Part shown: one piece after another, positions 39,066 through 56,760 of the stretch
Layout of the letters: every line of letters begins with the position of its first letter
Numbering within the stretch: position 1 is the stretch's first letter
From: Acidobacteriota bacterium
GTDB taxonomy: Bacteria; Acidobacteriota; Vicinamibacteria; Fen-336
DNA length: 64,000 nucleotides
Assembly (NCBI GenBank): GCA_011526565.1
Contig: WYBL01000116.1
Coordinates: 3,019-67,018, forward strand
Reading direction: 5' to 3'
Translations under genes and position numbers: made by a program
Notes under the pieces: model-generated
Told to the model about the DNA's origin: nothing
The model's database searches: none
Seen by the model: only the letters and a program-made list of their open reading frames with translations

Positions 39066-39832
<767 letters not shown>

Positions 39833-39836
<4 letters not shown>

Positions 39837-41253
39837 GCACGGTGGAACCGGCCGCGCCGGACGCGACCACCCCGGCTCCGGCCCCCGCGGCCGCGCCGAG
39901 CGCTGTCGAGGTGCGCGAGACCCAGCGCGAGGCTTCACGGCGCGACGAAATCGCACCCTGGCTCGTGGCGCTCGAGGCGCTGCGCCGAAAGGGAGAGCCG
40001 GAGTGGCTGGCCGCGCAGCGCGACGACGCCACGGCCCGCTTCGCGCGCCTCGGCTTCCCCACCACCCGCGACGAGGCCTGGCGCCAGACCAGCGTCGCGG
40101 CGCTGGCGCGCACCCGCTTCGACAACGCGACCCGCGGCGCGCTCGACGACGCGCTCGAATCGATGCCCGCGTTCCGCTTCGGCGGAGCGTTCGCCGGCCG
40201 CGAGGCGGTGTTCGTCAACGGCCGCTTCATGCCCGAGCTCTCCAGCCTCGGCAAGCTGGCCCGGGTGCGGGTGCGACCGCTGCGCCAGGTGCTCGCGGAC
40301 GACCCCGACGCGCTGTGCGGCCTGATCGGCGCGGCGGCCGACGACGACAAGCACCCGTTCCTGGCCCTGAACCTCGCCGCCTTCCAGGACGGCGCGGTGG
40401 TCGAGGTGCCCGAGCGATACACGGTCCACGGCCCGATCCACCTGCTCTTCATCAGCACCGGCGGCGCGGCCAGCCATCCGCGGGTGCTGATCGGCCTCAA
40501 CCGCAACTCCCAGGCGACGGTCGTCGAGAGCTACGTCAGCCCGCGCGGCGCCCACTCGTTCTGCAACGCGGCCACCGAGGTGCTGCTCGGCGACGGCGCC
40601 GTGCTCGACCACGTGCGGCTGCAGGCGGAGTCGGAGAAGGCCTACCACGTCGCCACCACCGCGACCCGGGTCAGCCGCAGCGCCACCTACCGCAGCCACG
40701 CGCTGACGCTGGGTGCGGCTCTCTCCCGCCACGACCTCGGCGTGCGGCTCGAGGGCGAAGGCGCCGACGTCGAACTGCACGGCCTGTTCGTCTCCGACGA
40801 CGCCCAGCTCCACGACACCCACTCGAAGCTCGACCACGTCGCCCCGCACGGCACCTCGCGCGAGGTCTACAAGGGCGTGCTCGGCGGCCGCGCTCGCGGC
40901 GTCAAGAACGGGCTGATCGTGGTGCGCCCCGGCGCCCAGAAGACCGACGCCCAGCAACAGAGCCGCAACCTGCTGCTCTCGCGCGAGGCGCTGGTCCACG
41001 CCACGCCGCAGCTCCTGATCCACGCCGACGACGTCAAGTGCAAGCACGGCGCGACCACGGGCCAGATCGAGGACGCGCCGCTGTTCTACCTGCGGTCGCG
41101 CGGCCTCGACGAGGAGGCGGCCCGCGCGCTGCTGGTGTGGGCGTTCGCGGCCGACGTGGTGTCGAAGCTGAAGGTGGCGCCGGTCCGCGAGTCGGTCGAG
41201 CGCTTCCTGCGCGAGCGGCTGCCGGCGGCCGGCGCGGTGCCCGGGACCCGCGC

Positions 41254-41257
<4 letters not shown>
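39833..41257 (+). CDS. sufD: Fe-S cluster assembly protein SufD
   Basis: It overlaps the sufC stop (ATGA) and has the SufD/SufB-like beta-helix C-terminus (...LSREALVHATPQLLIHADDVKCKHGATTGQIED...). Confidence 0.85.
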
Positions 41258-42506
<1,249 letters not shown>

Positions 42507-42507
<1 letters not shown>

Positions 42508-42965
42508 TGTCCGACCTGCGCGAGCTGTACCAGGAGGTCATCCTGGACCACACGAAGAAGCCGCGCAACAAGCGGCCGATGCCCGATGCCACCGGCCACA
42601 GCGACGGCATGAACCCGCTGTGCGGCGACAAGGCGACGGTGTACGTGAAGGTCGAGGACGGGCGCGTCGTCGACGTCTCGTTCGAGGGCCAGGGCTGCTC
42701 GATCTCGACCGCCTCGGCCTCGATGATGACCGAGGCGGTGCGCGGCAAGACGCCCGCCGAGGTCGACGCGCTGTTCGAGCGCTTCCACGCCCTCGTCACA
42801 GCCCCGCCCGACCAGGCGGGCCGCGACGCCGCTCCCGAGCTCGGCAAGCTGGCCGTGTTCGCGGGCGTGTGCGAGTTCCCCGTGCGCGTGAAGTGCGCGT
42901 CGCTCGCGTGGCACACGCTGAAGGCCGCGCTCGCCGGCAACGGCACGCCGGTCAGCACCGAGTAG
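42507..42965 (+). CDS. sufU: SufU/NifU-like Fe-S scaffold or sulfur-transfer protein
   Basis: It has the three conserved Cys (NPLCGD, GQGCSIS, VKCASLAW). The ATG overlaps the sufS stop. Confidence 0.8.
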
Positions 42966-42975
42966 GAGCCCCATC

Positions 42976-43518
42976 ATGATGAGACAGGCCAAGACGCTGT
43001 CCCGCGACATCGAGGCGACGGCGATCCCCTACGGCGACAAGATCCCGCTCAAGGCGGGCGCGATGGTCTACATCACCCAGGCCCTCGGTGGCACCTGGAC
43101 CGCGATGACCGACCACGGCTACATGGTGCGCATCGAGGCCACCGACGCCGACGCCATCGGCGAGAAGGCCGACCAGGGCCCGAGCCCCGAGGACCTCGCC
43201 AGCAAGCCGCTCGACCAGCTCTGCTGGGACCAGCTCAAGACCTGCTTCGACCCCGAGATCCCGGTCAACATCGTCGACCTCGGCCTCGTCTACGAGTGCG
43301 TGATCAGCGACCGGCCCGAGGGCGGCAAGAAGGTGGCGATCCGCTTCACGCTGACCGCCCCCGGCTGCGGCATGGGCGACTACCTGAAGGCCGACATCGA
43401 GCGCAAGATCGCGAGCATCCCCGGCGTCGACGAGTTCGACGTGCAGCTCGCCTTCGAGCCCCAGTGGAACCAGGCCATGATGAGCGACGCCGCGCGGCTG
43501 CAGCTCGGCCTGATGTGA
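42976..43518 (+). CDS. sufT: SufT-like Fe-S assembly protein (DUF59/MIP18 family with an N-terminal extension)
   Basis: The DUF59 core reads ...VNIVDLGLVYEC...IRFTLTAPGCGMGDYL...VQLAFEPQWNQAMMSDAARLQLGL. Confidence 0.7.
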   Translation: MMRQAKTLSRDIEATAIPYGDKIPLKAGAMVYITQALGGTWTAMTDHGYMVRIEATDADAIGEKADQGPSPEDLASKPLDQLCWDQLKTCFDPEIPVNIVDLGLVYECVISDRPEGGKKVAIRFTLTAPGCGMGDYLKADIERKIASIPGVDEFDVQLAFEPQWNQAMMSDAARLQLGLM

Positions 43519-43537
43519 GGGGCGCGAGGCCCGCCGC

Positions 43538-43990
43538 TTGAAGCTCTCGTCCCAGGAGGAGTACGGCCTGCGCTGCCTGCTCCAGCTCGCCCGCGCGGGC
43601 GACGCCGCCAGCCTGACCATCGCGGAGCTGAGCAAGCGCGAGGGCCTGTCGGCCCCCAACGTCGCCAAGATGCTGCGCCTGCTGCGCCGCTCCGGCTTCG
43701 TGCGTGCCACCCGCGGCCAGCAGGGCGGCTACGCCCTCGCCCGCCCCGCGGCGACGATCAGCGTCGGCGAAGCCCTCTCCGCCCTCGGCGGCCGCATCTT
43801 CGACGAAGGCTTCTGCGACCGCCACGCGGGCGCCGAAGCCTCCTGCGCCCACCTCGACGGCTGCTCGATCAAGCCCGTCCTGCAGCGCCTCCAGGAAGTC
43901 GTCGACTCGGTCCTCGGCCACATGACCCTGTCCGAGCTGCTGAGCCCGCAGGCCCCCCTGATCCGTCTCCAGTCCCGAAGACCGGCCTGA
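43538..43990 (+). CDS. Rrf2-family transcriptional regulator (IscR/SufR-like), trailing the suf operon
   Basis: The HTH reads LTIAELSKREGLSAPNVAKMLRLLRRSGFVRATRGQQGGYALAR. Three Cys (C..HAGAEASCAHLDGC) are positioned like the Fe-S ligands of IscR. It has a TTG start. Confidence 0.7.
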   Translation: MKLSSQEEYGLRCLLQLARAGDAASLTIAELSKREGLSAPNVAKMLRLLRRSGFVRATRGQQGGYALARPAATISVGEALSALGGRIFDEGFCDRHAGAEASCAHLDGCSIKPVLQRLQEVVDSVLGHMTLSELLSPQAPLIRLQSRRPA

Positions 43991-44002: not shown

Positions 44003-44401
44003 TCAGCACCACTTGAAGAAGGGCACGATCGGGCCGCGCCGGGCACCGAGCCAGAACCCGCAGTCGACTTCCATCGACGCCACCTTCGCGTCTCGCAACT
44101 CGATCTCGGAGTGACCGGCGGCGTCCGCCAGGGCGCGAGCGAGACGCCCGAGCATCACGGCGCGGGACCGGACGTTGGCTCGGGCCTTCTTCCAGTCCTG
44201 GCCGATGGCGTGCTCGGCGAAGAAGAACGTCCTCGTGTAGTGCCCGATCCACCAGCCCCGGGCGTCGTCTCCGATAGGGAACGCCTGCTTGCTGCCCGGC
44301 TTCTTGCCGACGCCTCTGCCGACCATCGGTAGCACGTCGGCCTCGAAGCGCGCCTTCATGCGCTGGGTCTCGACGCTCGGGTCAATCGTGATCGTACCCA
44401 T
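44003..44401 (-). CDS. Hypothetical protein
   Basis: A protein-like ORF (...GWWIGHYTRTFFFAEHAIGQDWKKARANVRSRAVMLGR...) lying downstream of, and co-directional with, the Ser/Thr kinase gene. No family recognised. Confidence 0.4.
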   Translation of the reverse strand: MGTITIDPSVETQRMKARFEADVLPMVGRGVGKKPGSKQAFPIGDDARGWWIGHYTRTFFFAEHAIGQDWKKARANVRSRAVMLGRLARALADAAGHSEIELRDAKVASMEVDCGFWLGARRGPIVPFFKWC

Positions 44402-44461
44402 ATCACCCTCCACGGTGGTCCTGTCCACAAGAACGGCAGCCCGGCGCGATACGAACGACGG

Positions 44462-47047
44462 TCAATGCCAGAGCGCCTTGGCGAAACCGCGGGCGTCCCT
44501 AACGGACCGCCGGCCCGGCACCGCGGCAAGAGCGCCCCGAAGAAGACTCGCGAGCCACTCCGGTGTGCGGCTGGCGTCCAGGCGTGCGGGAGAGCCCTGG
44601 CGGACCGTGCGCAGCGTGATCTCCTCGGTAGCCCCCTGGAATGGATGGCTCCCTGCAATCGCCTCGTAGATCACGACCGCCAGCGCCCAGACGTCCCACT
44701 CGGGCGAAGGCGCCACGCCCTCCCAGGCTTCCGGCGGAAGGTAGCGGGGAGTGCCTGCGACACAACCTTCCTGGTCCGCAGACAGCTCCATGAGGTGCGC
44801 GAGGCCGAAATCCAGGAGCTTGGGCGGGCCGGCAACCTGGAATCCGACATTCCCCGGCTTGATGTCACGGTGGAGCAGGCCCTCATCGTGGAGGTCGGCG
44901 AGCGTCGTGGCCAGGGCGCGGCCGAGGCTGAGGCTGGCTTCCAGACCCAGCGGGCCCCGCGTCAGGCGGTCCGCGAGCGTCTCGCCCGCGAGGTACTCCA
45001 CGACCAAGAACGGCACGCCCTTCCAGGTTTCTGCCCCGAACAGGGTCGCCACGCCGGGGTGGTTGATCGACGCCATCACGCGCGCCTCGGATCGCAGCCG
45101 TGCCGCCAGTGCCGGGGACGATCGCGGGAGCGTCTTCAGGGCCACGGTGCGCCCGAGAGTCGTGTCTTCTGCCTCGTAGACGACGCCCATGCCACCCTGA
45201 CCGACGCGCCGAACCAGCCGGAACTTGCCCAGCGCGATGCGCGGCAAGGCCGCCTGCCGACTTCGATCGGCGCCGCACTCGCAGCGCGGTTCGGAGTGAG
45301 CGCGAACTCGCGTGCAGGCGTCGCATTCCAGACCCGGCTCGTCGTCCCACTCCCCGCCCTCGGCGGCGCCCGGCTGCGGCACGCGAGCGATCGCGATTCC
45401 CGCAGCGGACGCGAGACTGTGAGCGAGTTCCTGCGCTCCGCGGTCCCAAGGCTCCTCGGACACGCGTTCGCCGAGGGCCAGGATGGCCGCCGGCTGTCCC
45501 GTGCTGCCCATCACGGGAACGACCAAGGTCACGCCGAGGTCGCTGCTCCATGCACGGTCGTCGTCAGGGAGCAAGGCCAGGAGGCGCGGTGTGATCTCCA
45601 GCGGGCGCGGGTCGGCGTCGAGCATCGCCACGATCGCGCTGCTCGCACTGAGTGGCCGGCAGGCGGAATCGCCCCCAGCGAACGTGCCGCTCGAGTTCCT
45701 CGTCAGAACGCGAACCTGGGTCGCCCCCAACGACATCCTCACCTCGCCTGTGAGGGCCGCCGCGACGTCGCGCTGACCCCGGGCCGCGCTCAGCGCGGTC
45801 AGCAGGCGTTGCAGCCCCGCGCCGCGGTCTCCATCGCCACGCGAGAACAGCCGATCGAGCCCGGCCTGGATCGGCCTGCGAAGCACCCGCAGGACTGTCG
45901 AGAGCGCGAGGGCCGCCAGCAGGCCCTTGCCCGGCCCCGCTCCGAGCAACTCGGCGAGCGGTCGATGGCGCTCGGCGAACAGGTATAGGGCCAACAGCAG
46001 GGCTGGCAGGAACACCAGCAAGTGAAGCGTCGTGCGGGCCAGTGCATGAGAGAGCGCACGCCGCGCCAGGAGGCGGAGGCCGAGGACGCGGCCCGCCGCT
46101 ACGGCTGCAGCGGTCGTCACGGGCAGCGACAGGAGGCCTCCATAGACGATGGTGTCCGTGGCGGCCTCGTACCGATCGACCCAGCGCTCCGCACCCGGCA
46201 CCAGGACCGAAACCAGCGTCAGGAGTACGAGCGGCGCTAGGCCGACGAAGACGGCCACGACGAAGCCGGCCACCCGACGCCCCTCGTCGCCGCTGGCAAG
46301 CCGCGCCTTGCGCAGGGCCAGACGAGCTCCGAGGGCCATGACCGAGAACTGCGCGGCCCAGAACAAGCGACCGCGGCCGTCACCGCCGTCGCGGCCGACG
46401 ACGATCAGCGCCTCACCCAGCGGGCTACCCGAGGCCAGCACTGCAACCGGGGTCACCAGGAAGAGGAACAGACCCAGGGCCGCTGCCGCCTTCTCCAACC
46501 GGACCAGCCCAACCTGTGCCGGCAGGTGGGCTGGCGCGGCGGGGAATCGCAGCAGGAGCGCGAGGAAGGTCGCCGCGAGGAATGCGTCGGGCTGCAGGCC
46601 CGCAAGGAGCGATACGCCGCTGGCCGCGCCCGAAGTGGCGGCGGCGATCGGCCTCGTGGCGAACGTCGCCGCCACGACGACGTAGAAGACGCCGAGACGG
46701 ATCGCGCGAGGGTCGCGGTCTCCGGAGTAGAGGAGCGCGGCACCGGAAAAGCCGAAAACCAGGAGTGGTCCGATGAGTCCGAAGTCCGAGTTCGCGATCG
46801 CCAGCCCGAGCCCTGACAAAGCGCGCGTCGCAGCGAGTAGGCAGAGCAGGCGGAACCCGAGGGACAACGGGTCCGAGACCGAGGCGCTCGCCACCCTGGC
46901 TCGCGCCCGGACGTTTTCGGCAACCGCCTCGAGTACGGTCGCGGTTCGCGACGGCAGCGCGACTCCGCGGTAGGCATCGCGCCAGTCCAGCGGTGCGCCA
47001 TCGGCCGCCGCCGCGGCGAGCCGCACGAGCGCGCCCTCAGGCTCCAT
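44462..47047 (-). CDS. Membrane-embedded sensor Ser/Thr protein kinase (N-terminal multi-TM region, central domain, Cys-rich Zn-ribbon-like motif, C-terminal Hanks-type kinase)
   Basis: There are 7 or more TM helices in the first 420 aa. A Zn-ribbon-like motif reads CDACTRVRAHSEPRCECG. The kinase has a GQGGMGVVYEA glycine loop, VALK, HRDIKPGNV, DFGLA and GTPRYLPPE. The start overlaps the end of the ECF sigma gene by 11 nt. Confidence 0.75.
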   Translation of the reverse strand: MEPEGALVRLAAAAADGAPLDWRDAYRGVALPSRTATVLEAVAENVRARARVASASVSDPLSLGFRLLCLLAATRALSGLGLAIANSDFGLIGPLLVFGFSGAALLYSGDRDPRAIRLGVFYVVVAATFATRPIAAATSGAASGVSLLAGLQPDAFLAATFLALLLRFPAAPAHLPAQVGLVRLEKAAAALGLFLFLVTPVAVLASGSPLGEALIVVGRDGGDGRGRLFWAAQFSVMALGARLALRKARLASGDEGRRVAGFVVAVFVGLAPLVLLTLVSVLVPGAERWVDRYEAATDTIVYGGLLSLPVTTAAAVAAGRVLGLRLLARRALSHALARTTLHLLVFLPALLLALYLFAERHRPLAELLGAGPGKGLLAALALSTVLRVLRRPIQAGLDRLFSRGDGDRGAGLQRLLTALSAARGQRDVAAALTGEVRMSLGATQVRVLTRNSSGTFAGGDSACRPLSASSAIVAMLDADPRPLEITPRLLALLPDDDRAWSSDLGVTLVVPVMGSTGQPAAILALGERVSEEPWDRGAQELAHSLASAAGIAIARVPQPGAAEGGEWDDEPGLECDACTRVRAHSEPRCECGADRSRQAALPRIALGKFRLVRRVGQGGMGVVYEAEDTTLGRTVALKTLPRSSPALAARLRSEARVMASINHPGVATLFGAETWKGVPFLVVEYLAGETLADRLTRGPLGLEASLSLGRALATTLADLHDEGLLHRDIKPGNVGFQVAGPPKLLDFGLAHLMELSADQEGCVAGTPRYLPPEAWEGVAPSPEWDVWALAVVIYEAIAGSHPFQGATEEITLRTVRQGSPARLDASRTPEWLASLLRGALAAVPGRRSVRDARGFAKALWH

Positions 47048-47582
47048 CGCCCATCGCCTTCGCAAGCTTGGCGAGCGCGCGCGCCACGACCATCCGGGCC
47101 GAGTCCGAAGAGGGCTTGCCCAGTGCCAGCGCGATCTGCTCGTAGCTGTATCCCATCTCGACCCGGGCGACGACCGCCTGCTGCTCGGGAGCCGGCAACT
47201 CGGCCAGGGCGGCCTGGTAGCGGCCCCGAAGTTCGGCGTCGGCGAAGAGGGAGTCCGGCCCTGGCTCCCGGCTCGCCATCTCGTCGCCGATCTCGTCGAC
47301 AGGCGGCCGGCGCGCGGCCCGACGGACGTGGTCGCGAACCCGGTTGACGACGGCCGTGCGGAGGTACGCCCCCAGCGCGCCGCGTCGGCGCGCGTCGAAG
47401 CGATCGAGATTCCGGACGGCCCCGATCAGCGTCTCCTGGACGATGTCTGCGGTGTCGCCCAGCGCGCGCGCCCACCCCGGCAGCCGCCCGCGGGCGAACC
47501 GGAGCAGCCCGGGCATCTCCCGCTCCAGCAGCCGCTCGAGGGCGGAGCGATTCCCGCGCCGCGCCAGGCTGAGCAGGCGCAC
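47037..47582 (-). CDS. ECF-family RNA polymerase sigma factor
   Basis: Region 2 reads ALERLLEREMPGLLRFARGRL...ADIVQETLIGAVRNLDRFD and region 4 reads LPAPEQQAVVARVEMGYSYEQIALALGKPSSDSARMVVARALAKL. I chose the GTG start at 47582; upstream of it the ORF runs through a low-GC, non-protein-like stretch. Confidence 0.75.
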   Translation of the reverse strand: MRLLSLARRGNRSALERLLEREMPGLLRFARGRLPGWARALGDTADIVQETLIGAVRNLDRFDARRRGALGAYLRTAVVNRVRDHVRRAARRPPVDEIGDEMASREPGPDSLFADAELRGRYQAALAELPAPEQQAVVARVEMGYSYEQIALALGKPSSDSARMVVARALAKLAKAMGDGA

Positions 47583-47756
47583 GGTGGTCGGGGCCGGGGA
47601 GAGAGGGGCCTCGGTCAAGGGATCACGACTCCGCACAGTGACTTCCCAGATTCTGACGACGGAGTGTACATGCACCCGGCGTGCTGTTCGGAACTCCGGT
47701 GAGGGACGTTGTTCCATTCAAGTTCCCCGTTCGCGCCGTGGACAAGGAGGCGTGCC

Positions 47757-48809
47757 ATGCCGACCGTCAGTTGGCTCACGAAGATCACGGACTTCGTCAA
47801 CCTCGGGAAGATCCTGGTCGACGCGGGTCCCGGCTTCATTCTGGCCCTGGCGCTCTACGTCGGCCTTGGGACGGCCCTCAACCTCCCCCTCATTCCTGTG
47901 CACGGCCATGACGCGGTCGAGAGCCGCCTTGCCGGCGAGCTCGAGAAGCGGAGGCAGGAGGAGGAGGGGCTCGAAGGCCAGGCCCTGCACGCCGAGCAGG
48001 GCCGGGAGGCCGCAGCCGCGGCGGTGAGCGGGGCCGAGGCAGCGCTGACTCGCGCGAAAGCGTCGCCCCTGGGGGGAAAGGCCGAGAGGCGGCTCGTGGT
48101 CGAGCTCCAACGGCTGCAGGGAGACCTGAGGGAGAAGCAACGTAGCGCGAAGGCCGCCGAGCGGAAGCTGCGACAGGGCAGCGAAGCCGTCGCTGAAGCC
48201 AAGGCGGCCCTCGCCGACGCGAAGAAGGCACAGGTGACGAGCGTCGCCGATCTGCTCTCGAGGGTGCTCGAGCACCTGGTCGCACTCGGCCTCGTGGGCT
48301 ACGTTCTCGGCACCCTGCTCAGCCCCGTCAATCGTTGGGTCTTTCTCGACACGATGGGGTCCGATCCCGCCAGCAACGGACTCGATGGCCGACCCTCTTC
48401 CTACTTCGTCGGAAAGGGGGTGGTGTCGCAGACCGAACTCGATGGCCTGGTGACTTCCTACTACCGGTTCGCCGAAGCGAGCGCCAACATGATCCTCCCG
48501 ATCCTGGCGCTTGCCCTCGCGGTCGGCATCGAACGCCGGAGTTCGGTGGCTTCGACTCCCTGGACCTCAGGCGCCGCGGCGCTGCTCGTCTTGGCGTTCG
48601 TTGTGTTCCTGGCCGTCACAGGCCGGCGCCGCTACCGCGACTACAAGACCCGCGTCCACTCGTTCATCACGGGGCGGCTCGAGAAGGTCCAGGCGGCGGA
48701 CGACGATCGCCGGCAGGGGCTGGAGAAGGCCAGGACGCTCGAACAGGTCGTCAAGCTCGCCGAGGAGCTGCTCAAGAAGACGGCCAAGCCCGGGAGCCCA
48801 ACCGCGTGA
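47757..48809 (+). CDS. Membrane protein with a long coiled-coil segment; hypothetical
   Basis: A strong SD (AAGGAGG) lies 6 nt upstream of the ATG. The N-terminal TM helix is ILVDAGPGFILALALYVGLG. A charged coiled coil (...ELEKRRQEEEGLEGQALHAEQGREAAAAA...LREKQRSAKAAERKLRQGSEAVAEAKAALADAKKAQ...) is followed by further TM helices. Confidence 0.55.
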   Translation: MPTVSWLTKITDFVNLGKILVDAGPGFILALALYVGLGTALNLPLIPVHGHDAVESRLAGELEKRRQEEEGLEGQALHAEQGREAAAAAVSGAEAALTRAKASPLGGKAERRLVVELQRLQGDLREKQRSAKAAERKLRQGSEAVAEAKAALADAKKAQVTSVADLLSRVLEHLVALGLVGYVLGTLLSPVNRWVFLDTMGSDPASNGLDGRPSSYFVGKGVVSQTELDGLVTSYYRFAEASANMILPILALALAVGIERRSSVASTPWTSGAAALLVLAFVVFLAVTGRRRYRDYKTRVHSFITGRLEKVQAADDDRRQGLEKARTLEQVVKLAEELLKKTAKPGSPTA

Positions 48810-49837
48810 TTCTCCTGTTCACCCTGGCGCAGCGCCTTCGACAGCGGTACGGCGAGGCCCACTGGGACCGCCTGCGGGCCTCGTTGGTCGACCTCGCCGA
48901 CGCCTACACCCTGACTCACGGGGCCGCAGCGCTGTGCCTGCCCGACGAGTTCTGGCCTCCAGGCTCGGACGCCAACGCCGTCGAGCTGATCCGTTCCGAG
49001 CTGGAGGCGCGGGCCCCGATCGAAGCGCTCGTGATCATCGGCGGCGACTCCGTAGTCCCGTTCGGGAGGGCGCCCAATCCCGTCGCCGATCGCGTCGCCG
49101 ATCCTGATTCCCTGGTCCTCAGCGACGCGGTCTACGGATCACCGTGGAGTCTTGCAGGAGCCCGCGTGCCCGTGGCGAGAATCCCCGACAGCGACCCGCC
49201 AGAACTGGGTGAACTGCTGTCGCTCCTCGAGGCGGCCCGGCCGGATTCCCGTGGCTCGTCTCGACGGGGCGCATTCGCGGTCGCGAATCCGGAGTGGGAA
49301 GCAGCGACCTGGAGGGCGCTCAAGGGTCACCGGCCGACCGTGCGAGTCGCTCCCCACTGGCACGGCGGTGATCCGGAGTGGCCATCCAACGACGCCGCCC
49401 TCCTCTACTTCAACCTCCACGGGTTCGCTCGACGACCCGAGTGGTTCGGATTCCACGACCGCAGCGGATGGACTCCCGTGCTGCGGCCCGGGAACATCCA
49501 ACGCGAGGCGGTCGCGGGCGCGATCGTCTTCGTGGAGAACTGCTACGGCGGCAACACCGTCGGCCGGTCACGACGCTCCAGCATCTCGCTGGCCCTGCTC
49601 GCCTGTGGCGCGCGGGCGATCATCGCCACCGCAGGCCTGGCGTTCGGAAGCCACCTGCCTTCCATGGAGCACAACGCCGACGCGCTGGCCAGCGCGACAC
49701 TCTCCGCCCTTTCCACTGGCGCCTCGGTTGGCGCAGCGCTGGACCGGGCGCGGCAAGCTCTGCCGGGCGACGACGCGTTCGCAGCCAAGACCCGATCCCA
49801 ATTCCTGATCTTCGGCGATCCCCTCGCCACCCTCTGA
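48806..49837 (+). CDS. Caspase-fold (CHAT/C25/C14-like) putative cysteine protease; hypothetical
   Basis: The GTG start overlaps the upstream stop (GTGA). It has an ordered His-Gly ... Cys dyad typical of the caspase-hemoglobinase fold (...ALLYFNLHGFARRPEW..., then ...AIVFVENCYGGNTVG...SLALLACGARAIIATAG). The N-terminal region reads ...ALVIIGGDSVVPFG.... Confidence 0.5.
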   Translation: MILLFTLAQRLRQRYGEAHWDRLRASLVDLADAYTLTHGAAALCLPDEFWPPGSDANAVELIRSELEARAPIEALVIIGGDSVVPFGRAPNPVADRVADPDSLVLSDAVYGSPWSLAGARVPVARIPDSDPPELGELLSLLEAARPDSRGSSRRGAFAVANPEWEAATWRALKGHRPTVRVAPHWHGGDPEWPSNDAALLYFNLHGFARRPEWFGFHDRSGWTPVLRPGNIQREAVAGAIVFVENCYGGNTVGRSRRSSISLALLACGARAIIATAGLAFGSHLPSMEHNADALASATLSALSTGASVGAALDRARQALPGDDAFAAKTRSQFLIFGDPLATL

Positions 49838-49850
49838 TCGGAGACTCGCG

Positions 49851-51707
49851 ATGAGACTGGAATACGTGCTCGCCCTGACCCTCGGAGTCGCTCCGGGCGC
49901 CGCAGCCGAGTCCAACGACCGAAAGGCAAGCCAGTACGTCGTCTTCGACGCTCGGTCCGGCGGCAAGGGGCTTCACCGGTGTGTCGGCAGCCCGGGTGCG
50001 GACTGCCGCGCGCCGAAGACCGACTTCTTCGACAGCCAGGACATCGTCCTGTTCCAGCTCGTCGGCGCTCCCTGCAACACCCGATGGACGTTTCAGCTCG
50101 GCGACGTGGCCGTCCCGGAACCCGAGCCGGGGATACGCGGCCTGGGCGACATGCCATCGCTGGCCAAGGCTCTTGCCGGACCGCCACCGGCGCACGGTTC
50201 TGATGCTCCAGCAGCGCAAGCGGCCGACTCGTGGTCCATCGAAGACATCCTCGGTCGGCTCGTCTCCCGGGAAGGGATCCAGGGCCTCCGGCTCGACATC
50301 GAGGGAGAGAAAGCCAGGCTCGAATCTGAGATCAGGAACCTGGCTGCCGCCGTCGCCGCGTACGAGTACGACGTCCGCATCTTCCTCGCCGACGCCGCGG
50401 TCGAGAACGCGGTTGCCGCGGTTCGCGCGGTCGAGGATGCGGCCGGCAAGCCTCCTGCGGCGGGATGCTCCGGCGCGTACCAGTTGCGCGAAGCTGCGGA
50501 GATGGCCGAGGCGGAACTCTCCCGTGTGGAGGCAAACATCACAACCTCAGGCTTGGGGAGCAAGGCCAGCACTCTGCGGGAGCGGCTGCGCGTGCTCGGA
50601 GCCGAGATTGGCCTTCACGCAGCCCGGGTGGACAGGGCACGCGCCGCGGTCGAGATCGCCCGCTCGGGCCTTGGCTGGGAATGCGAAGCCGCGCCGCAGA
50701 CCACGTCGGCCACCGAATGCGACGCTCCTGTCGAGGTGGGCCTGGAACGCTTGAAGCGAGCGGTGGCCGCCTACGGTGCGACCGCTACGGGCGAGGCTCT
50801 GCGCCGGATATACGACCACTACGAGACGGAGAGGCCTCGCGTCCGATACGCCCTTATGCAAGACCTCGCCGAGCTCGGGGTCGCGCTTTCGAGCACGGCC
50901 GTCGATGGCCAGTTGGGCGCGCAGCGGGATAGCGTTCGTCGCTCCTCGGCATCGCTCGAGACGTGGGGGGCTGGGGCCGACGACCGCCTCCGCGACATGC
51001 GGAAGGCGCTCCGACGCCACTTCGCCGATTCCACCTACGCCTCGACCGTCGACGTGCGCCCTCGATTCACGGGGAACACCGTCCTGAGTCTCAAGGTGCG
51101 GCGCCAGGTATTCGATCCGCTCGCGCCGCCGGCCACCGAGCCTCCCGCCGCCGTCGAAGTGGCGAGTGCATCCTACGAGGTGCACAAGCGGTACCTCTTC
51201 AACGTCGGCGGCGGATTCATGATCAGCGGCATCGGGAACAGGGAATACGCCGTCCGGCAGTATCGACGCCTGGATGCCGACGGGCAGCCCGTCTCCGACG
51301 ACGACGGACCAATCTTCGACAAGAAGCTCGTCGAGTCGGGCTCGGATGACCGGTCGCAGGATTTCGCCCTGACCTTCACCGCCTACCTTCCGCGCCGTCT
51401 CGACACTTTCCACGCGTCGGCGGCGCGCCGACCCACGACTGGGTTGATGGTGGGCTTCTCACTCGAGAAGCCCACGGACAACCTGTACGCGGGCCTCGTT
51501 CTTCAGCCGACCCTGGGCATCCAACTGACGGCCGGGGTTCACTTCGGAAAGCGCTCGGCCCCACAGGATGGCATCGTCCCCGAGGTCACCGTGCTCCCGG
51601 CCGACACGACAGCGCCGCCGATACGAGACGAGTGGGCGAGGGCGCTCTTCTTCAGTATCGGGTTCGACGCCAGCGTGTTCTCGCGGTTGTTCGGGTCGTC
51701 CGAGTAG
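49851..51707 (+). CDS. Large secreted protein with a possible C-terminal beta-barrel/beta-rich region; hypothetical
   Basis: Signal peptide MRLEYVLALTLGVAPGAAAE. The C-terminus has alternating-hydrophobic beta-strand-like segments (...YLFNVGGGFMISGIGN..., ...TGLMVGFSLE..., ...LVLQPTLGIQLTAGVHFG..., ...ALFFSIGFDASVF...). It starts 14 nt after the preceding gene. Confidence 0.5.
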   Translation: MRLEYVLALTLGVAPGAAAESNDRKASQYVVFDARSGGKGLHRCVGSPGADCRAPKTDFFDSQDIVLFQLVGAPCNTRWTFQLGDVAVPEPEPGIRGLGDMPSLAKALAGPPPAHGSDAPAAQAADSWSIEDILGRLVSREGIQGLRLDIEGEKARLESEIRNLAAAVAAYEYDVRIFLADAAVENAVAAVRAVEDAAGKPPAAGCSGAYQLREAAEMAEAELSRVEANITTSGLGSKASTLRERLRVLGAEIGLHAARVDRARAAVEIARSGLGWECEAAPQTTSATECDAPVEVGLERLKRAVAAYGATATGEALRRIYDHYETERPRVRYALMQDLAELGVALSSTAVDGQLGAQRDSVRRSSASLETWGAGADDRLRDMRKALRRHFADSTYASTVDVRPRFTGNTVLSLKVRRQVFDPLAPPATEPPAAVEVASASYEVHKRYLFNVGGGFMISGIGNREYAVRQYRRLDADGQPVSDDDGPIFDKKLVESGSDDRSQDFALTFTAYLPRRLDTFHASAARRPTTGLMVGFSLEKPTDNLYAGLVLQPTLGIQLTAGVHFGKRSAPQDGIVPEVTVLPADTTAPPIRDEWARALFFSIGFDASVFSRLFGSSE

Positions 51708-51808: not shown

Positions 51809-52585
51809 TCAGCGAGCGGGTGCGGGAGGCTCTGCGAAGATCGCGGCGACGAGGTCGAGGCGGCCCGCTTTCCACTTGGCAAAGAGCCAGTTGACCTCCG
51901 GGGCGAGGCTGGCCGCGGCGATGCGTTCCTGGAGGGGCCCCAGCGCTGCGCGAAGGCCGAGCGTGGCTTCGCCGGCCAGGATCTGGAGCTGGGGCCTTCC
52001 TCGCTCCTGCTTGACCGCGGCCACCAGGAAGCCGTCGCCGAGTTCTTTCGGGACTTGCACCTTGGCCGCGCGCAGCAAGGGACCCTGCGGTGGTGCGCCT
52101 GGGTCGCCCGGGCACAGGGTCAGCTTCAGGTCGTGGTCGGCGGGGAGTTCGAGTTCCTTGGGGCTGAGGCCGCGCAGGCTCGACTCGGCGCTTGCGACCA
52201 CCGCCACCGCGCCGCTGCCGCTCGGCCGGTACACCACCCGCCAGTGCGGTGCTGTCCCGCTCCCGTCCTCGTGGGTGGAGACCGCGGTGGAGGCTGACTG
52301 ACCCGCGATCCAACCCGGGTTGTATCCGCAGTCGAGCGAGCCCGACCAGGTGCCGACGCCCGGCTCGCGCCAGCAGACGAAGTGGCCCTGGAACTCGCCG
52401 CACGAGCCACTCGTGCACCACAGGTTCCCGTCGCACCAGGCCTCGACCTGGGCGCAGGGCCACGGCGGCAACCAGCGCTGGCACTCGACCACGCAGTGAT
52501 CGGCGGCCGCGGGCGCGGTCGCCGAGACCAACGTCAGCGTGAGGAAGAGGTCCGTGATTCGAAGCCTTCTTCTCATGCTTCTCAT
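51809..52585 (-). CDS. Secreted Cys-rich hypothetical protein
   Basis: Signal peptide (MRSMRRRLRITDLFLTLTLVSATAPAAA) then a Cys-rich region: DHCVVECQRWLPPWPCAQVEAWCDGNLWCTSGSCGEFQGHFVCW.... Confidence 0.5.
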   Translation of the reverse strand: MRSMRRRLRITDLFLTLTLVSATAPAAADHCVVECQRWLPPWPCAQVEAWCDGNLWCTSGSCGEFQGHFVCWREPGVGTWSGSLDCGYNPGWIAGQSASTAVSTHEDGSGTAPHWRVVYRPSGSGAVAVVASAESSLRGLSPKELELPADHDLKLTLCPGDPGAPPQGPLLRAAKVQVPKELGDGFLVAAVKQERGRPQLQILAGEATLGLRAALGPLQERIAAASLAPEVNWLFAKWKAGRLDLVAAIFAEPPAPAR

Positions 52586-52976
52586 CCCTGCCGCCCGCGC
52601 GTGACCACCTCGACCGTGCCGCCGGGCCGCAGGATCAGCTCGATCCGCGCCGCATCCGAGACTTGAAGCACCTGAGTCCACCGCTCCGCCCTCCCGTCGT
52701 TCGACCAACTCACCGTCGCCTGCACGACGCCGGCGTGCGCCCGCACCCGGAGCCTCGGCCCCGTGCCCGTCTCGTGCCCGAGCAACTCGGCCCGCACGCA
52801 CGCCGCATCCACCCTCAGCGTGACGCCAGACGCAGCCCCCGGCCCGCCATTCACGACCTCGACGAGCACTCTGTCGCCGAGGAGGCGGGCGCCGAGCCGC
52901 GGCGCGGCGGCGAGCCCCGCCCCGACCACTGCGAGCGAAGCGACGGCCGCCCAGCGCAACGCCAGGTGGCCACTCA
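52582..52976 (-). CDS. Small secreted hypothetical protein
   Basis: Signal peptide MSGHLALRWAAVASLAVVGAGLAAA. Both ends overlap the neighbouring genes by 3-4 nt (operon-style). Confidence 0.45.
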
Positions 52977-54337
52977 TGGCTTCTGGTAGCCGTAGAGCTC
53001 GCGTCGAGCGCCGGCAACCGGGGACATCCAGTCGTCGATCGGGAGACCGGGGAGCGGGCGGCCCCAGAGGTCGCCCCACCTCGCGCCTCGGAGGAAGCTG
53101 ATCGTCCAGCGCTGGACGAGATTCATCAGCGGGAGCGCGGCGTGCAGGGTCATGCCCTTGCGGAACGGGAGGTTCTCGCCGACTCCGAGGAACCCGCCGA
53201 AGTCGCGCTCCGCGACGCCGACCACGGAATCCCGGTCCGCCCACTCAGGAACCGCCCCGTGCAACGGCACGGTACCGTCGCCGAGGTTGTCGCGCCAGGC
53301 GTCGACGTCGGCCGGGGCCCCGTCTTCGCCGCGGTACTCCTGCGACTCCACGTCGAACGCGAAGCGGCCGTCGGCCGCCAGCTTCACACGATGCGCCGTG
53401 CGCTCGTCCAGGCCCACGATCAGCAGCCACTGGCCCGGCTCGGCGAGGGCCGCGCTCGGGTCCTCCTCGTTGACGCTCGCGAGGAAGCTGCGCCCGTCTT
53501 CGAGGCGCTCGCGGAGGTACTTCCACGCGGACTTCATGCGCTGCTCGGCGTTGGAGTTCCTGGGGTCGGTGCTGTGCGTCCGGATGAAGTCGGCGACCGA
53601 CTCGACGATGCTCTCCTGCCAGTTCTTCGCGTTGAAGATCGCCTTCCCCGAGTGCCCCGCCAGCGCTCCTTCGAAGTACGGCAACAGGTGGTAGATCGCG
53701 GGCGTCATGCGGGCCGCCAGGCGCTCGCTGTGCTGCGGCGAGCCGACCATCGAGCCTTCGCCCGTGGCCAGCTTGATCACCGCGTCGACCGCTCCCTGGA
53801 AGGGCGTTCCGATCGTCACCACGCGTCGAACCAGCGGCTTGCCGTTCGGGCCCTTGCAACCCTTGGCGAGAGCCGATGCGATCACCAGACCGCCCATCGA
53901 GTGGCCCACGAGGTCGACCGTCGTCGCCTTCTCTTTCGCGTAGCTCTTCAGGAGGTTGGTGCGGTCGATCACCTCGCGCACGAACTCGCAGAGCTGGTCC
54001 GCCACGACGCGGTTGTCGGCGCGCCAGTCGTAGGCGAACGGGAAGACGGGCACGACTGCCGTCGGCCCGCGATCTTCGCGCAGCGCCGATCGCAGCTCGC
54101 GGATGAACTCCGCGTAGCCCATCTCCGCCGCGTGCGAGGGGACGATCTTCGCCGGCTCCACCGCCTCGAAGCGCAGGTCGTCCGGGTGCATCGCGATGCG
54201 GTGGAACTCCTTGATCGGCCGCCAGCGCAGCGCCTCGATCCCGGGGTCCCAGACGACCTCGGGCGTGGTGGGATAGACGTCGCGGAGCACGGACCCCGTG
54301 ATCCCGTGGACGACGATCACCGGTGGCTGCACCTTCA
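52974..54337 (-). CDS. Alpha/beta-hydrolase of the PGAP1/LCAT-like lipase family
   Basis: MKVQPPVIVVHGITGS and the nucleophile elbow LVGHSMGGLVIAS are present; PGAP1-like esterases share the VHG...GHSMGG pattern. Confidence 0.68.
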
Positions 54338-54444
54338 TTGCCAGGCCCTCCAGACTCGCTCGTTCATAAAGTATACATAAAGCACACACGGAACGCTCGA
54401 TGGATCGGCTTTGAGCCCCGCGCGAAGGCTCGAGCCTCGGCCCT

Positions 54445-56760
54445 TCAGGGGCGGCGCAGGGTCTCCAACGGGGCTTGCCGTGACGCGGCGACTGCCGGTG
54501 CCAGCGAGGCGGCGGCGGCGCACAGAAGGGTGAACGCCGCCGATGCGGTCAGCGTCGTGAGTTCGAACGACGCCCACTGGAAATGAGCCGACTCGGCCCA
54601 CTGGCCCAGCCACACCGAGACGAGGGTTCCGATCCCGATGCCTGCCATGGCCAGCGTCGCCCCCTCGGCCGCCATCAGGATCGTCAACTCGCGGGGCCCT
54701 GCTCCGACGACGGCCCGGACCGCCATCTCGAAGCGGCGCATCGCGGCGAGGGAGTACACGACGGCAGAGACGCCGACGAGCGCCGCCCCAAGGCCGACGA
54801 GGGCGTACGTGCCGAGCAGTCGCACCTGCGCCAGGAGCGGCGCCTGTGCTCGGGCGACGAGATCCCCGGCGAACACCAGGCCATGGACCGAGGGGCTCTT
54901 CGCCGTCCCGCTGACGGCGTGGATCTGCCGAGCGGCCTCGCCGCAATCGTGGCAGCGCACCAGCAACCACTCCTCGTCGGGGTGGCGACCGCGGGCCGGC
55001 CGACTGCGCGGCAGGTAGCACTGGGGCAGGGGTTCCTGGGCAGCATCGATGCCTCGTACCGGTGCGACGACGCCGATGACCTCGCGCAGGGCCAGTTCGC
55101 CCTCGATGCGGATCTGACGACCCACGGCCGCGACAGCCTGCCCTGGCCGCCGCCCCTCGTCGGCGAACGCCAGGATCAGTACGTCCGCGTCTCCCGGCGC
55201 GAAAGCCCGCCCGGCGAGCAGCCGGATCCCGGTCGCGGCCAGGAAGTCGCCCTCCACGTGCCAGACCTGACAGAGGACCCTCCCGGCCTCCCCGTCGATC
55301 CACACGCCCCCTGCTGACGCGACACCTGGAGGCGCAGACGCGGTCGCCGCGGCCGACACTCCGGGAAGTTGCGCGACCTCGGCCATCAGGGCCTGAGGCG
55401 AGGCGCCCAGGCGCCCGAGCAGCAGGTTCTTCGATTCGTAGCCCAGAGGAATCTCGAGTGCTGCTCTCAGGGTCCATGCGGAGACCAGCGCGCCGTTGAG
55501 CAAGACGACCGCGATGACCGTCTGACTGATCACCAGGAGGCGGCGCGTCCACCGCACCTGCCCTGTGGACGCTCCCCCGCCGTCCCGCAGGCCTTCCGAC
55601 GGAGCCGCGCGCAATGCAACGGCCATCGCGCCGGCGGATGCGAGGAGGACGCTCGGGAACGCCAGACCGAGAGCCGCCCCGCTCGCGACGGCGACGAGAC
55701 GCTCGAGCGGCGGCTGGTGGACCCACCAGGCCGCGAATATCTCGCGTCCGCCGACGATCGAGAGGGAGGCGACCAGCGCCCCCACGACGCCCACTCCGAG
55801 GGCGAGGGAGAACGTCTCGCTGCCGAGCTGCAGCAGGAGGTTTCGCCGCGTCGCGCCGAGAGCCTGCCGCACGGCGAACTCGACGCGGCGCACCGACATC
55901 CGACCCAGCAAGAGAGTGCCCAGGCTCGCGACGGCGGTACCCAGGAGCAAGCCCGAGAGCGCCAGGAGCAGCAGCGCGGGCGCTATCACTCTCTCGCGCG
56001 CCACGTCCACCATCGGCCGGACGAACACGCGCTCGCCGAAGCGCACCCCGGTGCTGCGCGTGTAGAGGGCGTGCAGGCCGTGCAGCAAGCCCCCCAGTTG
56101 CGAACGCGCCGACTCGATGCTGGTCTCGGGCCGCAGGCGCCCGACCCAGCCGTCGCGTCGCACCAGGCCGAACGGATCGTCGTTGCCTCGGGCCCGCCCT
56201 CCTGCACGCGTGCGTGGCGTCCAGATCTCGGTGCCTCCCGGGAAGTCGAAGCCCGCCGGGGCGACACCGACGACGCGGTGAAGGGTGCCTTCCAGCAGGA
56301 TCTGCGCCCCGAGCACGGCCGCCCCGGGACCGAAGTGCCGGTCGCGGAAGGCGGCGCCCACAACGGCCACAGGTTCGTTCGATCGATCCTCCTCGACGCT
56401 GAATGCGCGCCCCGGCAAAGGAACGACCCCGAACACGCTGAAGAAGGCGGCGGAGACAGCGGTGGTCCTGACCTCTCTACGGTGGCCGTCCAGTCGGACC
56501 TCGACGAGTCCGGTCTCGTAGGTCGCCAACGCCGCGAGGCTTCGCGCCTGCCCCCAGTACTCGACGGGGTCCCCGACGAGAGGGTGCGCCATGTTCCCGA
56601 GATGCACGATGCGGTCCGCCGCGGGCACCCCGAGCGGGCGCAGGACCAAGGCATCGACGGCGGCCACCATCGCGCTCGCCACGCCGAGGACGACCCCGAG
56701 GGCGATGGCGACGACGGCCGTACCGCGATGGCGAAGGGCGAGCCGGGCATCGAGGCGCAC
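54445..56760 (-). CDS. ABC transporter permease of the FtsX/MacB type (duplicated FtsX domains; ADOP family); no ATPase gene adjacent
   Basis: An N-terminal TM helix is followed by a large periplasmic domain, then two blocks of 3-4 TM helices (...LLLGTAVASLGTLLLGRMSVRRVEFAVRQALGATRRNL... and ...VVYSLAAMRRFEMAVRAVVGAGPRELTILMAAEG...), the pattern of the FtsX permease fold. Confidence 0.72.
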   Translation of the reverse strand: MRLDARLALRHRGTAVVAIALGVVLGVASAMVAAVDALVLRPLGVPAADRIVHLGNMAHPLVGDPVEYWGQARSLAALATYETGLVEVRLDGHRREVRTTAVSAAFFSVFGVVPLPGRAFSVEEDRSNEPVAVVGAAFRDRHFGPGAAVLGAQILLEGTLHRVVGVAPAGFDFPGGTEIWTPRTRAGGRARGNDDPFGLVRRDGWVGRLRPETSIESARSQLGGLLHGLHALYTRSTGVRFGERVFVRPMVDVARERVIAPALLLLALSGLLLGTAVASLGTLLLGRMSVRRVEFAVRQALGATRRNLLLQLGSETFSLALGVGVVGALVASLSIVGGREIFAAWWVHQPPLERLVAVASGAALGLAFPSVLLASAGAMAVALRAAPSEGLRDGGGASTGQVRWTRRLLVISQTVIAVVLLNGALVSAWTLRAALEIPLGYESKNLLLGRLGASPQALMAEVAQLPGVSAAATASAPPGVASAGGVWIDGEAGRVLCQVWHVEGDFLAATGIRLLAGRAFAPGDADVLILAFADEGRRPGQAVAAVGRQIRIEGELALREVIGVVAPVRGIDAAQEPLPQCYLPRSRPARGRHPDEEWLLVRCHDCGEAARQIHAVSGTAKSPSVHGLVFAGDLVARAQAPLLAQVRLLGTYALVGLGAALVGVSAVVYSLAAMRRFEMAVRAVVGAGPRELTILMAAEGATLAMAGIGIGTLVSVWLGQWAESAHFQWASFELTTLTASAAFTLLCAAAASLAPAVAASRQAPLETLRRP

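Follow-up and report, generated by a model that had tools for sequence, protein, structure and literature searches.

A gingipain-fold peptidase homologue encoded with a membrane and a secreted protein, divergent from a sigma factor-kinase operon, in Vicinamibacteria

Gene content of the locus

A 64,000-nucleotide stretch of an Acidobacteriota genome of the class Vicinamibacteria (GenBank assembly GCA_011526565.1, contig WYBL01000116.1, positions 3,019 to 67,018 of the forward strand; the whole stretch is referred to here as the window, and is ~71% G+C) carries two divergent gene sets between positions 44003 and 51707. One includes genes for a sigma factor of the extracytoplasmic function (ECF) type, a polytopic membrane kinase and a small protein, and the other genes for a membrane protein (memCC), a stand-alone homologue of C25 (gingipain-type) peptidases and a secreted protein. 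A first-pass annotation, made from the sequence alone, had described an ECF sigma factor coupled to a Ser/Thr kinase and, divergent from these, an operon for a coiled-coil membrane protein, a caspase-fold protease and a large secreted protein. All six open reading frames (ORFs) of this block are present in the sequence, and the features, in window coordinates, are listed below.

44003..44428, minus strand: small soluble protein (ORF; 141 aa as the longest ORF, 125-132 aa in public gene calls)
44462..47065, minus strand: polytopic membrane Ser/Thr kinase, 861-867 aa (Pkinase match)
47037..47618, minus strand: sigma factor of the ECF class (group 4), with 181 aa if started at GTG 47582 and 193 aa if started at TTG 47618
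47619..47756: divergent intergenic region (sequence, and alignment with relatives L001 and L002)
47757..48809, plus strand: memCC, inner-membrane protein, 350 aa (transmembrane segments and composition)
48806..49837, plus strand: stand-alone C25 (gingipain)-fold cysteine peptidase homologue, 343 aa (fold model and His/Cys dyad)
49851..51707, plus strand: secreted protein, 618 aa (Sec signal peptide; six cysteines)

The plus-strand genes form the tightly coupled operon that had been proposed, as the memCC gene, ending at 48809, overlaps the start of the C25-like gene at 48806 by 4 nt, and only 13 nt separate the latter from the gene for the 618-aa protein. On the minus strand, the end of the sigma factor gene overlaps the kinase start by 11 nt (ATG 47047) or 29 nt (TTG 47065). 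The small gene, 33 nt downstream of the kinase gene and in the same orientation, probably completes the sigma-kinase operon as its third gene. When the block was compared with that of an 82%-identical relative (contigs L001-L005), third-position differences exceeded those at first and second codon positions in six of six genes, indicating that all are under purifying selection and are real coding genes. The three plus-strand products are annotated as hypothetical proteins in a public Vicinamibacteria metagenome-assembled genome (MAG) record.

The 343-aa protein is a C25-type peptidase homologue

Direct scans of the 343-aa protein against Pfam, NCBIfam, PADLOC and PHROGs gave no match. A database search returned one 82%-identical protein and three distant proteins (30-36% identity) that carry Peptidase_C25, and the relatives score 31-46 bits against PF01364 (cut-off 23). 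The counterpart at the same operon position in a Terriglobia genome (locus L029, see below) reaches 42.6 bits with PF01364, the match covering positions 45-372 of the 374 in the profile. A search of 1.84 billion representatives with a sequence profile recovered 2299 family members at E≤0.001, and a word-indexed profile search found 1673 members at E≤1e-5, all those listed carrying precomputed PF01364.

In an alignment of 81 sequences that are ~30% identical to the window protein, Tyr201, Asn203, Leu204, His205, Gly206, Glu244, Cys246 and Gly248 are invariant. His205 (codon 49418-49420) is part of the motif YFNLHG and Cys246 (codon 49541-49543) of ENCYG. The His and Cys on which the first-pass annotation had based its caspase-fold assignment are therefore conserved across homologues.

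An AlphaFold model built from the 81 sequences has a predicted local distance difference test score (pLDDT) of 87.4 and a predicted template modelling score (pTM) of 0.90; an earlier model from 5 sequences (pLDDT 52.6) was not used. Structure comparison of the model gave the highest score with the gingipain RgpB (29.5; 289 of 343 residues aligned), followed by the gingipain Kgp (26.9), separases and the TPR-CHAT protein of Craspase (14-17), the CHAT anti-sigma protein DdvA (12.8), PorU (12.1), and caspases, metacaspases and legumain (about 7.5). SAVED-CHAT is also among the structural neighbours. Foldseek concurred, recovering RgpB with an E of 5e-12. The gingipains were found by structure comparison alone; when solved structures were searched with the 5- and 81-sequence profiles, they were not reached. 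In the model, His205-Gly206 follow the strand formed by residues 199-203 and Cys246 follows that formed by residues 240-243, which is the clan CD arrangement, and the protein has the two-subdomain caspase-hemoglobinase alpha/beta fold of the gingipain type. Given this modelled fold and the order of His-Gly and Cys after successive strands, the 343-aa protein is a C25-type (gingipain-fold, clan CD) peptidase homologue with a complete dyad, and peptidase activity is predicted from the conserved residues. Neither CHAT (PF12770) or separase, by profile or closest structure, nor C14 (caspase/metacaspase), by closest structure or sequence, describes it. Of the three families that had been put forward for checking, only C25 holds, through the fold and the PF01364 matches of the relatives but not through a direct Pfam match.

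RgpB and Kgp of Porphyromonas gingivalis (MEROPS C25, clan CD) share 12-15% identity with the window protein. The gingipains are secreted virulence proteases from a Bacteroidota host and have a signal peptide, an N-terminal prodomain, an immunoglobulin (Ig)-like domain and a C-terminal domain for the type IX secretion system (T9SS). In contrast, the window protein, from an Acidobacteriota host, has none of these and is encoded in an operon with a membrane and a secreted protein. The catalytic domain accounts for all 343 residues. A signal peptide was considered for the N-terminus (MILLFTLAQ) and rejected, as residues 2-5 form the first strand of the fold and the corresponding segment lies internally in relatives of 850-950 aa. 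Given this and the lack of a signal peptide, the modelled protein is expected to be cytoplasmic. It is thus a new, export-signal-free member of the C25 fold family; to our knowledge, C25 peptidases have been described almost exclusively as virulence proteases that Bacteroidota secrete.

A DNA pattern for the short type of peptidase (NLHGF-x5-W[LF]GF) found two chance matches only in a metagenome collection, one inside a 1086-aa ORF that presumably encodes a TonB-dependent receptor and the other beside an unrelated ORF.

Partner proteins and conservation of the three-gene core

The presence of a membrane protein with a long charged coiled coil, as first annotated, agrees with the composition of memCC, which consists of an N-terminal transmembrane (TM) segment, a charged helical segment of ~115 residues (residues ~50-165), three further TM segments and a basic/helical, presumably cytoplasmic tail. 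Residues 51-150 include 74-76% helix formers and 34-40% charged residues, and the charged segment is predicted to form a coiled coil. No family match was found for memCC in Pfam, NCBIfam or PADLOC, and the PHROG scan gave nothing usable.

The 618-aa protein begins with a Sec signal peptide, with cleavage at about the junction of AAA and ES, and includes six Cys residues. It had been described as a secreted beta-rich protein. Secretion is consistent with the signal peptide, but the protein is not simply beta-rich, as a middle part rich in helix formers (residues 121-360) precedes a beta/loop-rich C-terminal third. Pfam, NCBIfam, PADLOC and PHROGs gave no match, and a profile search found two close relatives only.

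A scan of one genome per species identified 256 loci with a relative of the peptidase, of which the best 80 were fetched. Two of these 80, L023 and L029 (Terriglobia/Acidobacteriota MAGs), carry the same three-gene arrangement, with genes for a 958-978-aa membrane protein, a 363-367-aa stand-alone C25-like protein and an 824-835-aa secreted protein. In L029 and L023, stop and start codons overlap by 1 nt and 11 nt. The 618-aa protein aligns over its full length with the 824-835-aa proteins, Cys278 and Cys290 being invariant, and is probably disulfide-bonded. Similarly, memCC shares its architecture (N-terminal motif, coiled coil and C-terminal TM block) with the 958-978-aa proteins. Each of the three window proteins can be aligned with its Terriglobia counterpart and the stop and start codons overlap again, so the three-gene core is shared by two acidobacterial classes to an extent well beyond chance.

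The Terriglobia homologues of memCC (L029 6819-9755; L023 6855-9731) are nearly three times longer than the window version. Between TM1 and the coiled coil they include a Cys-containing segment and a large Ig-like insert (ASH/Cep192_D4-like, below cut-off). The position of this Ig-like insert, together with the basic tail after TM4 (RRRYRDYKTR) and the signal peptide and conserved cysteines of the third protein, suggests that the coiled coil of memCC is probably periplasmic and the third protein likewise outside the cytoplasm, which would leave the peptidase on the cytoplasmic side.

The 82%-identical relative keeps all six genes in the same order. Its gene for the 618-aa protein is directly followed by an inserted Pnkp/Hen1 RNA-repair cassette (L001 9565-13589; also in L002 and L003), which marks the edge of the six-gene block. 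The Pnkp protein consists of AAA_33, Metallophos and PNKP_ligase domains and is encoded with a Hen1 methyltransferase; at the corresponding position in the window, only ~100 bp separate the 618-aa gene from the next operon. A tblastn search with the window sigma factor and kinase against all fetched loci found close relatives only, apart from one weak sigma match in an unrelated Chloroflexota locus. Conservation of the neighbourhood, which had been proposed as a check, is thus seen for the three-gene core in Terriglobia and for the full block in the relative, but not for the link to the sigma factor and kinase elsewhere.

The ECF sigma factor and its kinase

The sigma factor matches Sigma70_r2 (3e-12), Sigma70_r4_2 (5.7e-8) and TIGR02937 (1.8e-21; 76.5 bits, cut-off 42.9) and belongs to the ECF (group 4) sigma factors. 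Among NCBIfam subfamily models, ShbA and Planctomycete subfamily 1 (TIGR02984) matched best, though far below their cut-offs. Translation probably starts at TTG 47618 to give 193 aa. This start is preferred because the DNA to about 47622 is almost invariant in the relative (47583-47622 is near-invariant and the rest of the intergenic region is not), and because several public gene calls use it. Region 2.2 of the protein reads GDTADIVQE and keeps the acidic DxxDxxQE pattern, including both Asp residues and QE.

As first annotated, the overlapping downstream gene encodes a Hanks-type kinase and not an anti-sigma factor, and Pfam and NCBIfam scans found no anti-sigma domain in any neighbour. This gene pair, with its overlap, is kept in one close relative. 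The kinase has a short cytoplasmic N-terminus, ~8-9 hydrophobic segments predicted by hydropathy (residues 70-365, nt 45971-46858) and a GAF-like region with a weak match below cut-off (E 0.0022, residues 484-559, nt 45389-45616). These are followed by a four-Cys, Zn-ribbon-like motif CxxC-N10-CxC (residues 581-597, with CxxC at 581 and CxC at 595; nt about 45275-45325) and a C-terminal Hanks domain (PF00069, E 4.7e-37, 128.3 bits, residues 616-853, nt 44507-45220). The earlier description of a protein with seven or more TM segments, a Zn-ribbon and a C-terminal Hanks kinase is in agreement with this order. The motifs GQGGMG, VALK, HRDIKPGN, DFG and PPE, read from the sequence, are intact, and the best solved relatives are PknA, StkP and PknB. 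The N-terminal 63 residues were considered as an anti-sigma domain, but have no zf-HC2, RskA or other match.

The small protein has no Pfam, NCBIfam, PADLOC or PHROG match. It is kept at the same position in the 82%-identical relative, and the two versions share the core motifs WW.GHY.RTFFFA and, at the C-terminus, DCG.W...FFKWC. The three products of this one operon differ in divergence between the window (44462-47618) and the relative (L001 2264-5384), with 95% identity for the sigma factor, 62% for the kinase and 46% for the small protein. Within the kinase, identity is 44% over the N-terminal cytoplasmic 63 residues and 71% in the kinase domain.

The kinases PknT of Vibrio parahaemolyticus and PknS of Xanthomonas citri, which are also encoded with ECF sigma factors, have been described as transmembrane proteins that include a periplasmic region. 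In both, the kinase domain is at the N-terminus, with a single TM segment. In the window protein, by contrast, the kinase domain is C-terminal and comes after a polytopic membrane part, the GAF-like region and the Zn ribbon.

Comparison with described ECF systems

ECF sigma factors that are encoded with Hanks kinases lack an anti-sigma factor and adjoin the genes that they switch on, as found for EcfK/PknS, which adjoins a type VI secretion system, and for EcfP/PknT (PMC13147305, PMC8999054, PMC7826278). The ECF43 pairs EcfP-PknT (V. parahaemolyticus) and EcfK-PknS (X. citri) resemble the window pair in the coupled transmembrane Hanks kinase, the lack of an anti-sigma factor and the adjacent candidate targets. 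However, ECF43 sigma factors, for which dependence on phosphorylation is proven by experiment, have lost the acidic region 2.2 motif, STTA or QTTA replacing DAED, and a phospho-Thr supplies the charge such that phosphorylation is obligatory (PMC13147305, PMC8999054). The window sigma factor does not have the uncharged (S/Q)TTA sequence and, as the acidic motif DTADIVQE is kept, it is not of the ECF43 type.

In ECF59-62, ECF217 and ECF283, a kinase is likewise co-encoded and an anti-sigma factor is lacking (Casas-Pastor et al. 2021, PMC7826278). These groups retain a DAED-like motif with Ser/Thr in or near it, and their mechanism is unknown (PMC8999054). The DTAD sequence of the window sigma factor appears to fit these groups better than ECF43, the likeness being drawn from motif and context. 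The groups were described from Planctomycetes and Actinobacteria and not from Acidobacteria, and none has been reported with a C25-type peptidase operon. The window sigma-kinase pair thus follows a wiring that is already known, but is not of the ECF43 form and has a kinase of unusual architecture. The first-pass annotation had proposed a wiring in which phosphorylation replaces an anti-sigma factor. A coupled pair without a recognisable anti-sigma factor is indeed present, but given the retained DTADIVQE motif, replacement by phosphorylation is one possibility only. The region 2 Thr that the annotation had suggested looking for is present inside DTAD and is a candidate phosphorylation site.

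A CHAT protein has also been associated with an ECF sigma factor in the DdvS/DdvA system of Myxococcus xanthus, in which the periplasmic CHAT domain of DdvA, fused to the anti-sigma factor, lacks a complete active site (PMC11506125). In contrast, the window peptidase is a separate and presumably cytoplasmic protein with a complete dyad, and no anti-sigma factor is present. ECF54 contexts that include CHAT proteins have likewise been described (PMC8999054). Hence, the earlier view that the locus is not a described system is too broad with respect to ECF-kinase pairs (ECF43, ECF59-62, 217 and 283) and to ECF factors found with CHAT proteins (ECF54 and DdvS/DdvA), but it stands for the three-gene module and its placement beside a sigma factor and kinase, for which no description was found.

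The divergent intergenic region

The gap between the two operons is 174 bp (47583-47756), or 138 bp if the sigma factor starts at TTG 47618. It includes GGAAC at 47690-47694 and a Shine-Dalgarno sequence, AGGAGG, at 47745-47750 before the memCC start codon (ATG 47757). Alignment with L001 and L002 revealed two blocks that are kept in the relative, one consisting of CTGTTCGGAAC (47684-47694), 12 nt and CGTT (47707-47710), and the other of GAGTGTACATG (47664-47674). The pattern GGAAC-N12-CGTT matches the window once, where 0.35 matches are expected and 29 of 100 shuffles do at least as well, and thus does not exceed chance, nor does GTTCGGAAC; a second, inverted GGAAC is not conserved in the relative. 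Thus, the GGAAC sequence and strong Shine-Dalgarno sequence noted previously are present, but the GGAAC-containing motif is at chance level and its inverted copy is not retained. A scan of the divergent region found no sigma-70-type promoter, and no Rfam family was detected there. One terminator-like site lies inside the memCC gene; the number is below that expected by chance.

Proposed function of the module

The interpretation that we favour, tentatively and at slightly less than an even chance, is that the three co-translated genes form a lineage-restricted envelope module, the expression of which in Vicinamibacteria is under the adjacent sigma factor governed by the polytopic kinase. The membrane-embedded kinase would sense an envelope or membrane cue and control the sigma factor, either by phosphorylation, with the Thr inside DTAD or Ser residues of the linker between sigma2 and sigma4 as candidate sites, or by holding the sigma factor at its own cytoplasmic N-terminus. 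The active sigma factor would then transcribe the divergent operon. The peptidase would be positioned or gated at the membrane's inner face by memCC and the 618-aa protein, and may cleave one or more cytoplasmic targets there. In this scheme, the topology of the proteins, their assembly into a complex and the phosphorylation of the sigma factor are predictions. Control of the operon by the sigma factor is suggested by position and published precedent, and is supported by the divergent placement retained in the relative and by the gap that has no sigma-70-type promoter.

Should the module be an envelope-coupled intracellular protease, the clan CD fold would have gained a new role in bacterial signalling, in a dominant but poorly studied soil phylum. 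The divergent operon would, in addition, be a candidate target for a kinase-associated, non-ECF43 sigma factor, a class with a mechanism that is still open (PMC8999054).

Several observations weigh against this interpretation. As the acidic DxxDxxQE pattern is kept, the sequence suggests that phosphorylation is not obviously needed for core binding. The peptidase had no match to any Pfam peptidase model at E≤0.1, and the equivalence of His205/Cys246 to RgpB His211/Cys244 is drawn from strand topology and invariance instead of a superposition of residues. When solved structures were searched with memCC and the 618-aa protein, compositional noise only was returned (e.g. apolipoprotein A-I), and nothing significant. 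The full block is found in one other genome only, a close relative, and synteny with it is therefore weak evidence. Neither a sigma factor nor a Hanks kinase gene lies within 10 kb of the Terriglobia three-gene cores, which indicates that the sigma/kinase link is not a conserved property of the module, and this link may be local or coincidental. Finally, the intergenic region has no -35/-10 pair common to both strands in both genomes, and the GGAAC-N12-CGTT motif, besides occurring at chance level, has an atypically short spacer for a promoter.

Part of this evidence would be explained by the main alternative, in which the two operons are independent neighbours, the sigma-kinase pair regulating other genes or itself, and the peptidase operon having its own promoter. 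This alternative is somewhat unlikely, although it accounts for the Terriglobia cores, which are placed between genes that we take, from ORFs and without confirmation by family searches, to be of Lol type and Mla type. It also accounts for the lack of a shared or significant ECF-type motif on the intergenic strands and for synteny of the full block in the 82%-identical relative only. On the other hand, the divergent placement over 138-174 bp is retained in that relative despite the Pnkp/Hen1 rearrangement of the other flank, the published ECF-kinase pairs adjoin their targets (PMC13147305, PMC8999054), and a sigma-70-type promoter for a separately transcribed peptidase operon was not found in the gap.

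A more far-reaching form of the envelope-module interpretation, which we consider doubtful, is that the module is an envelope-spanning proteolytic switch of a hitherto undescribed kind. A cue from the periplasm or outer envelope would be read by the 618-aa protein and the coiled coil, and passed through the four-helix anchor of memCC to the cytoplasmic peptidase, with the switch being wired to the sigma factor and kinase in Vicinamibacteria, either as their output or as a resetting protease. If so, a gingipain-type enzyme would serve as an intracellular signalling protease and not as a secreted degradative one.

The order of events may also be reversed, the peptidase being activated by an envelope signal via the secreted and coiled-coil proteins and then cleaving a component of the sigma circuit, for which the cytoplasmic N-terminus of the kinase or the 141-aa protein would be candidates. 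Parallels are the cleavage of the sigma-associated Csx30 by Craspase and the proposed autoproteolysis of DdvA. Both this order and the candidate substrates are improbable, as there is no anti-sigma domain to cleave and no direct evidence for any substrate, and the Terriglobia modules work without an adjacent sigma factor.

It is very unlikely that the 343-aa protein is a catalytically inert scaffold, or pseudo-peptidase, that uses the gingipain fold for binding only. Its lack of a direct Pfam match and the Asn that stands before Cys where Ala is usual (ENC in the window protein, EAC in relatives) would fit such a role, and inactive clan CD domains are known, such as DdvA with its incomplete site (PMC11506125). 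However, the invariance of His205, Gly206, Cys246 and Gly248 in the 81 aligned sequences is hard to explain without catalysis.

Least probable of all is an anti-phage or abortive-infection (regulated cell death) system with a caspase-like protease effector, the tie suggested by the first-pass annotation: clan CD proteases are effectors in several defence systems, Craspase and SAVED-CHAT are structural neighbours and a Pnkp/Hen1 RNA-repair cassette adjoins the block in the relative, but the fold is closest to the gingipains and not to CHAT effectors, PADLOC gave no match for memCC, the peptidase, the 618-aa protein, the sigma factor or the small protein and only generic kinase models (PD-T4-6, mad6, PglW) for the kinase domain, PHROGs gave no family beyond a weak coiled-coil-type match, a scan of viral contigs found no relatives, and the neighbours are a Suf operon and envelope/transport genes with no integrase or other defence genes among them.

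Flanking genes

The sigma-kinase operon adjoins a complete Suf iron-sulfur cluster assembly operon (~39440-43990, plus strand) that includes genes for SufB, SufC, SufD, SufS, a NifU-like protein and FeS_assembly_P, and ends with a gene for an Rrf2-family regulator. Beyond the 618-aa gene lies a minus-strand operon (51809-54389) encoding a presumably secreted and Cys-rich protein of 255 aa, a protein of 131 aa and an LCAT/PGAP1-like alpha/beta hydrolase (lipase) of 454-471 aa, followed by genes for a MacB-type ABC transporter at 54445-56760. The 51809-54389 operon is kept in the 82%-identical relative, where the Pnkp/Hen1 insertion splits it from the module.

Relatives with TPR domains in Anaerolineae

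The bulk of the peptidase family consists of Anaerolineae proteins of 850-950 aa with an N-terminal TPR region, a C25-like domain and a Cys-rich C-terminal tail, a few of which are named 'C25 family cysteine peptidase' by NCBI. These belong to the same family as the window peptidase, with 28-33% identity and shared invariant motifs, but, unlike the window module, they lack a membrane or a secreted partner, as well as a nearby sigma factor or kinase. Among the best 80 of the 256 loci, 74 have a giant gene for a NACHT and multi-TPR STAND protein (median 1721 aa) directly upstream on the same strand, as in the pair at L010 200-7237 and 7183-8958 (Anaerolineae/Chloroflexota loci L010-L089). The NACHT/TPR assignment was checked against Pfam, and the other neighbours were labelled from their ORFs. 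A gene for a small membrane protein lies upstream of the pair in 45 of the 80 loci. Other upstream genes presumably encode a sigma-54-type response regulator (39/80) and a PAS histidine kinase (34/80), and a gene that we take to be ftsZ-like is found two genes downstream of the TPR-C25 gene in 35 of the 80. The NACHT-TPR and TPR-C25 proteins are a conserved pair of a STAND NTPase and a gingipain-fold peptidase in a core-genome-like setting, and with 2299 representatives of the family at E≤0.001, this pairing may have wider reach.

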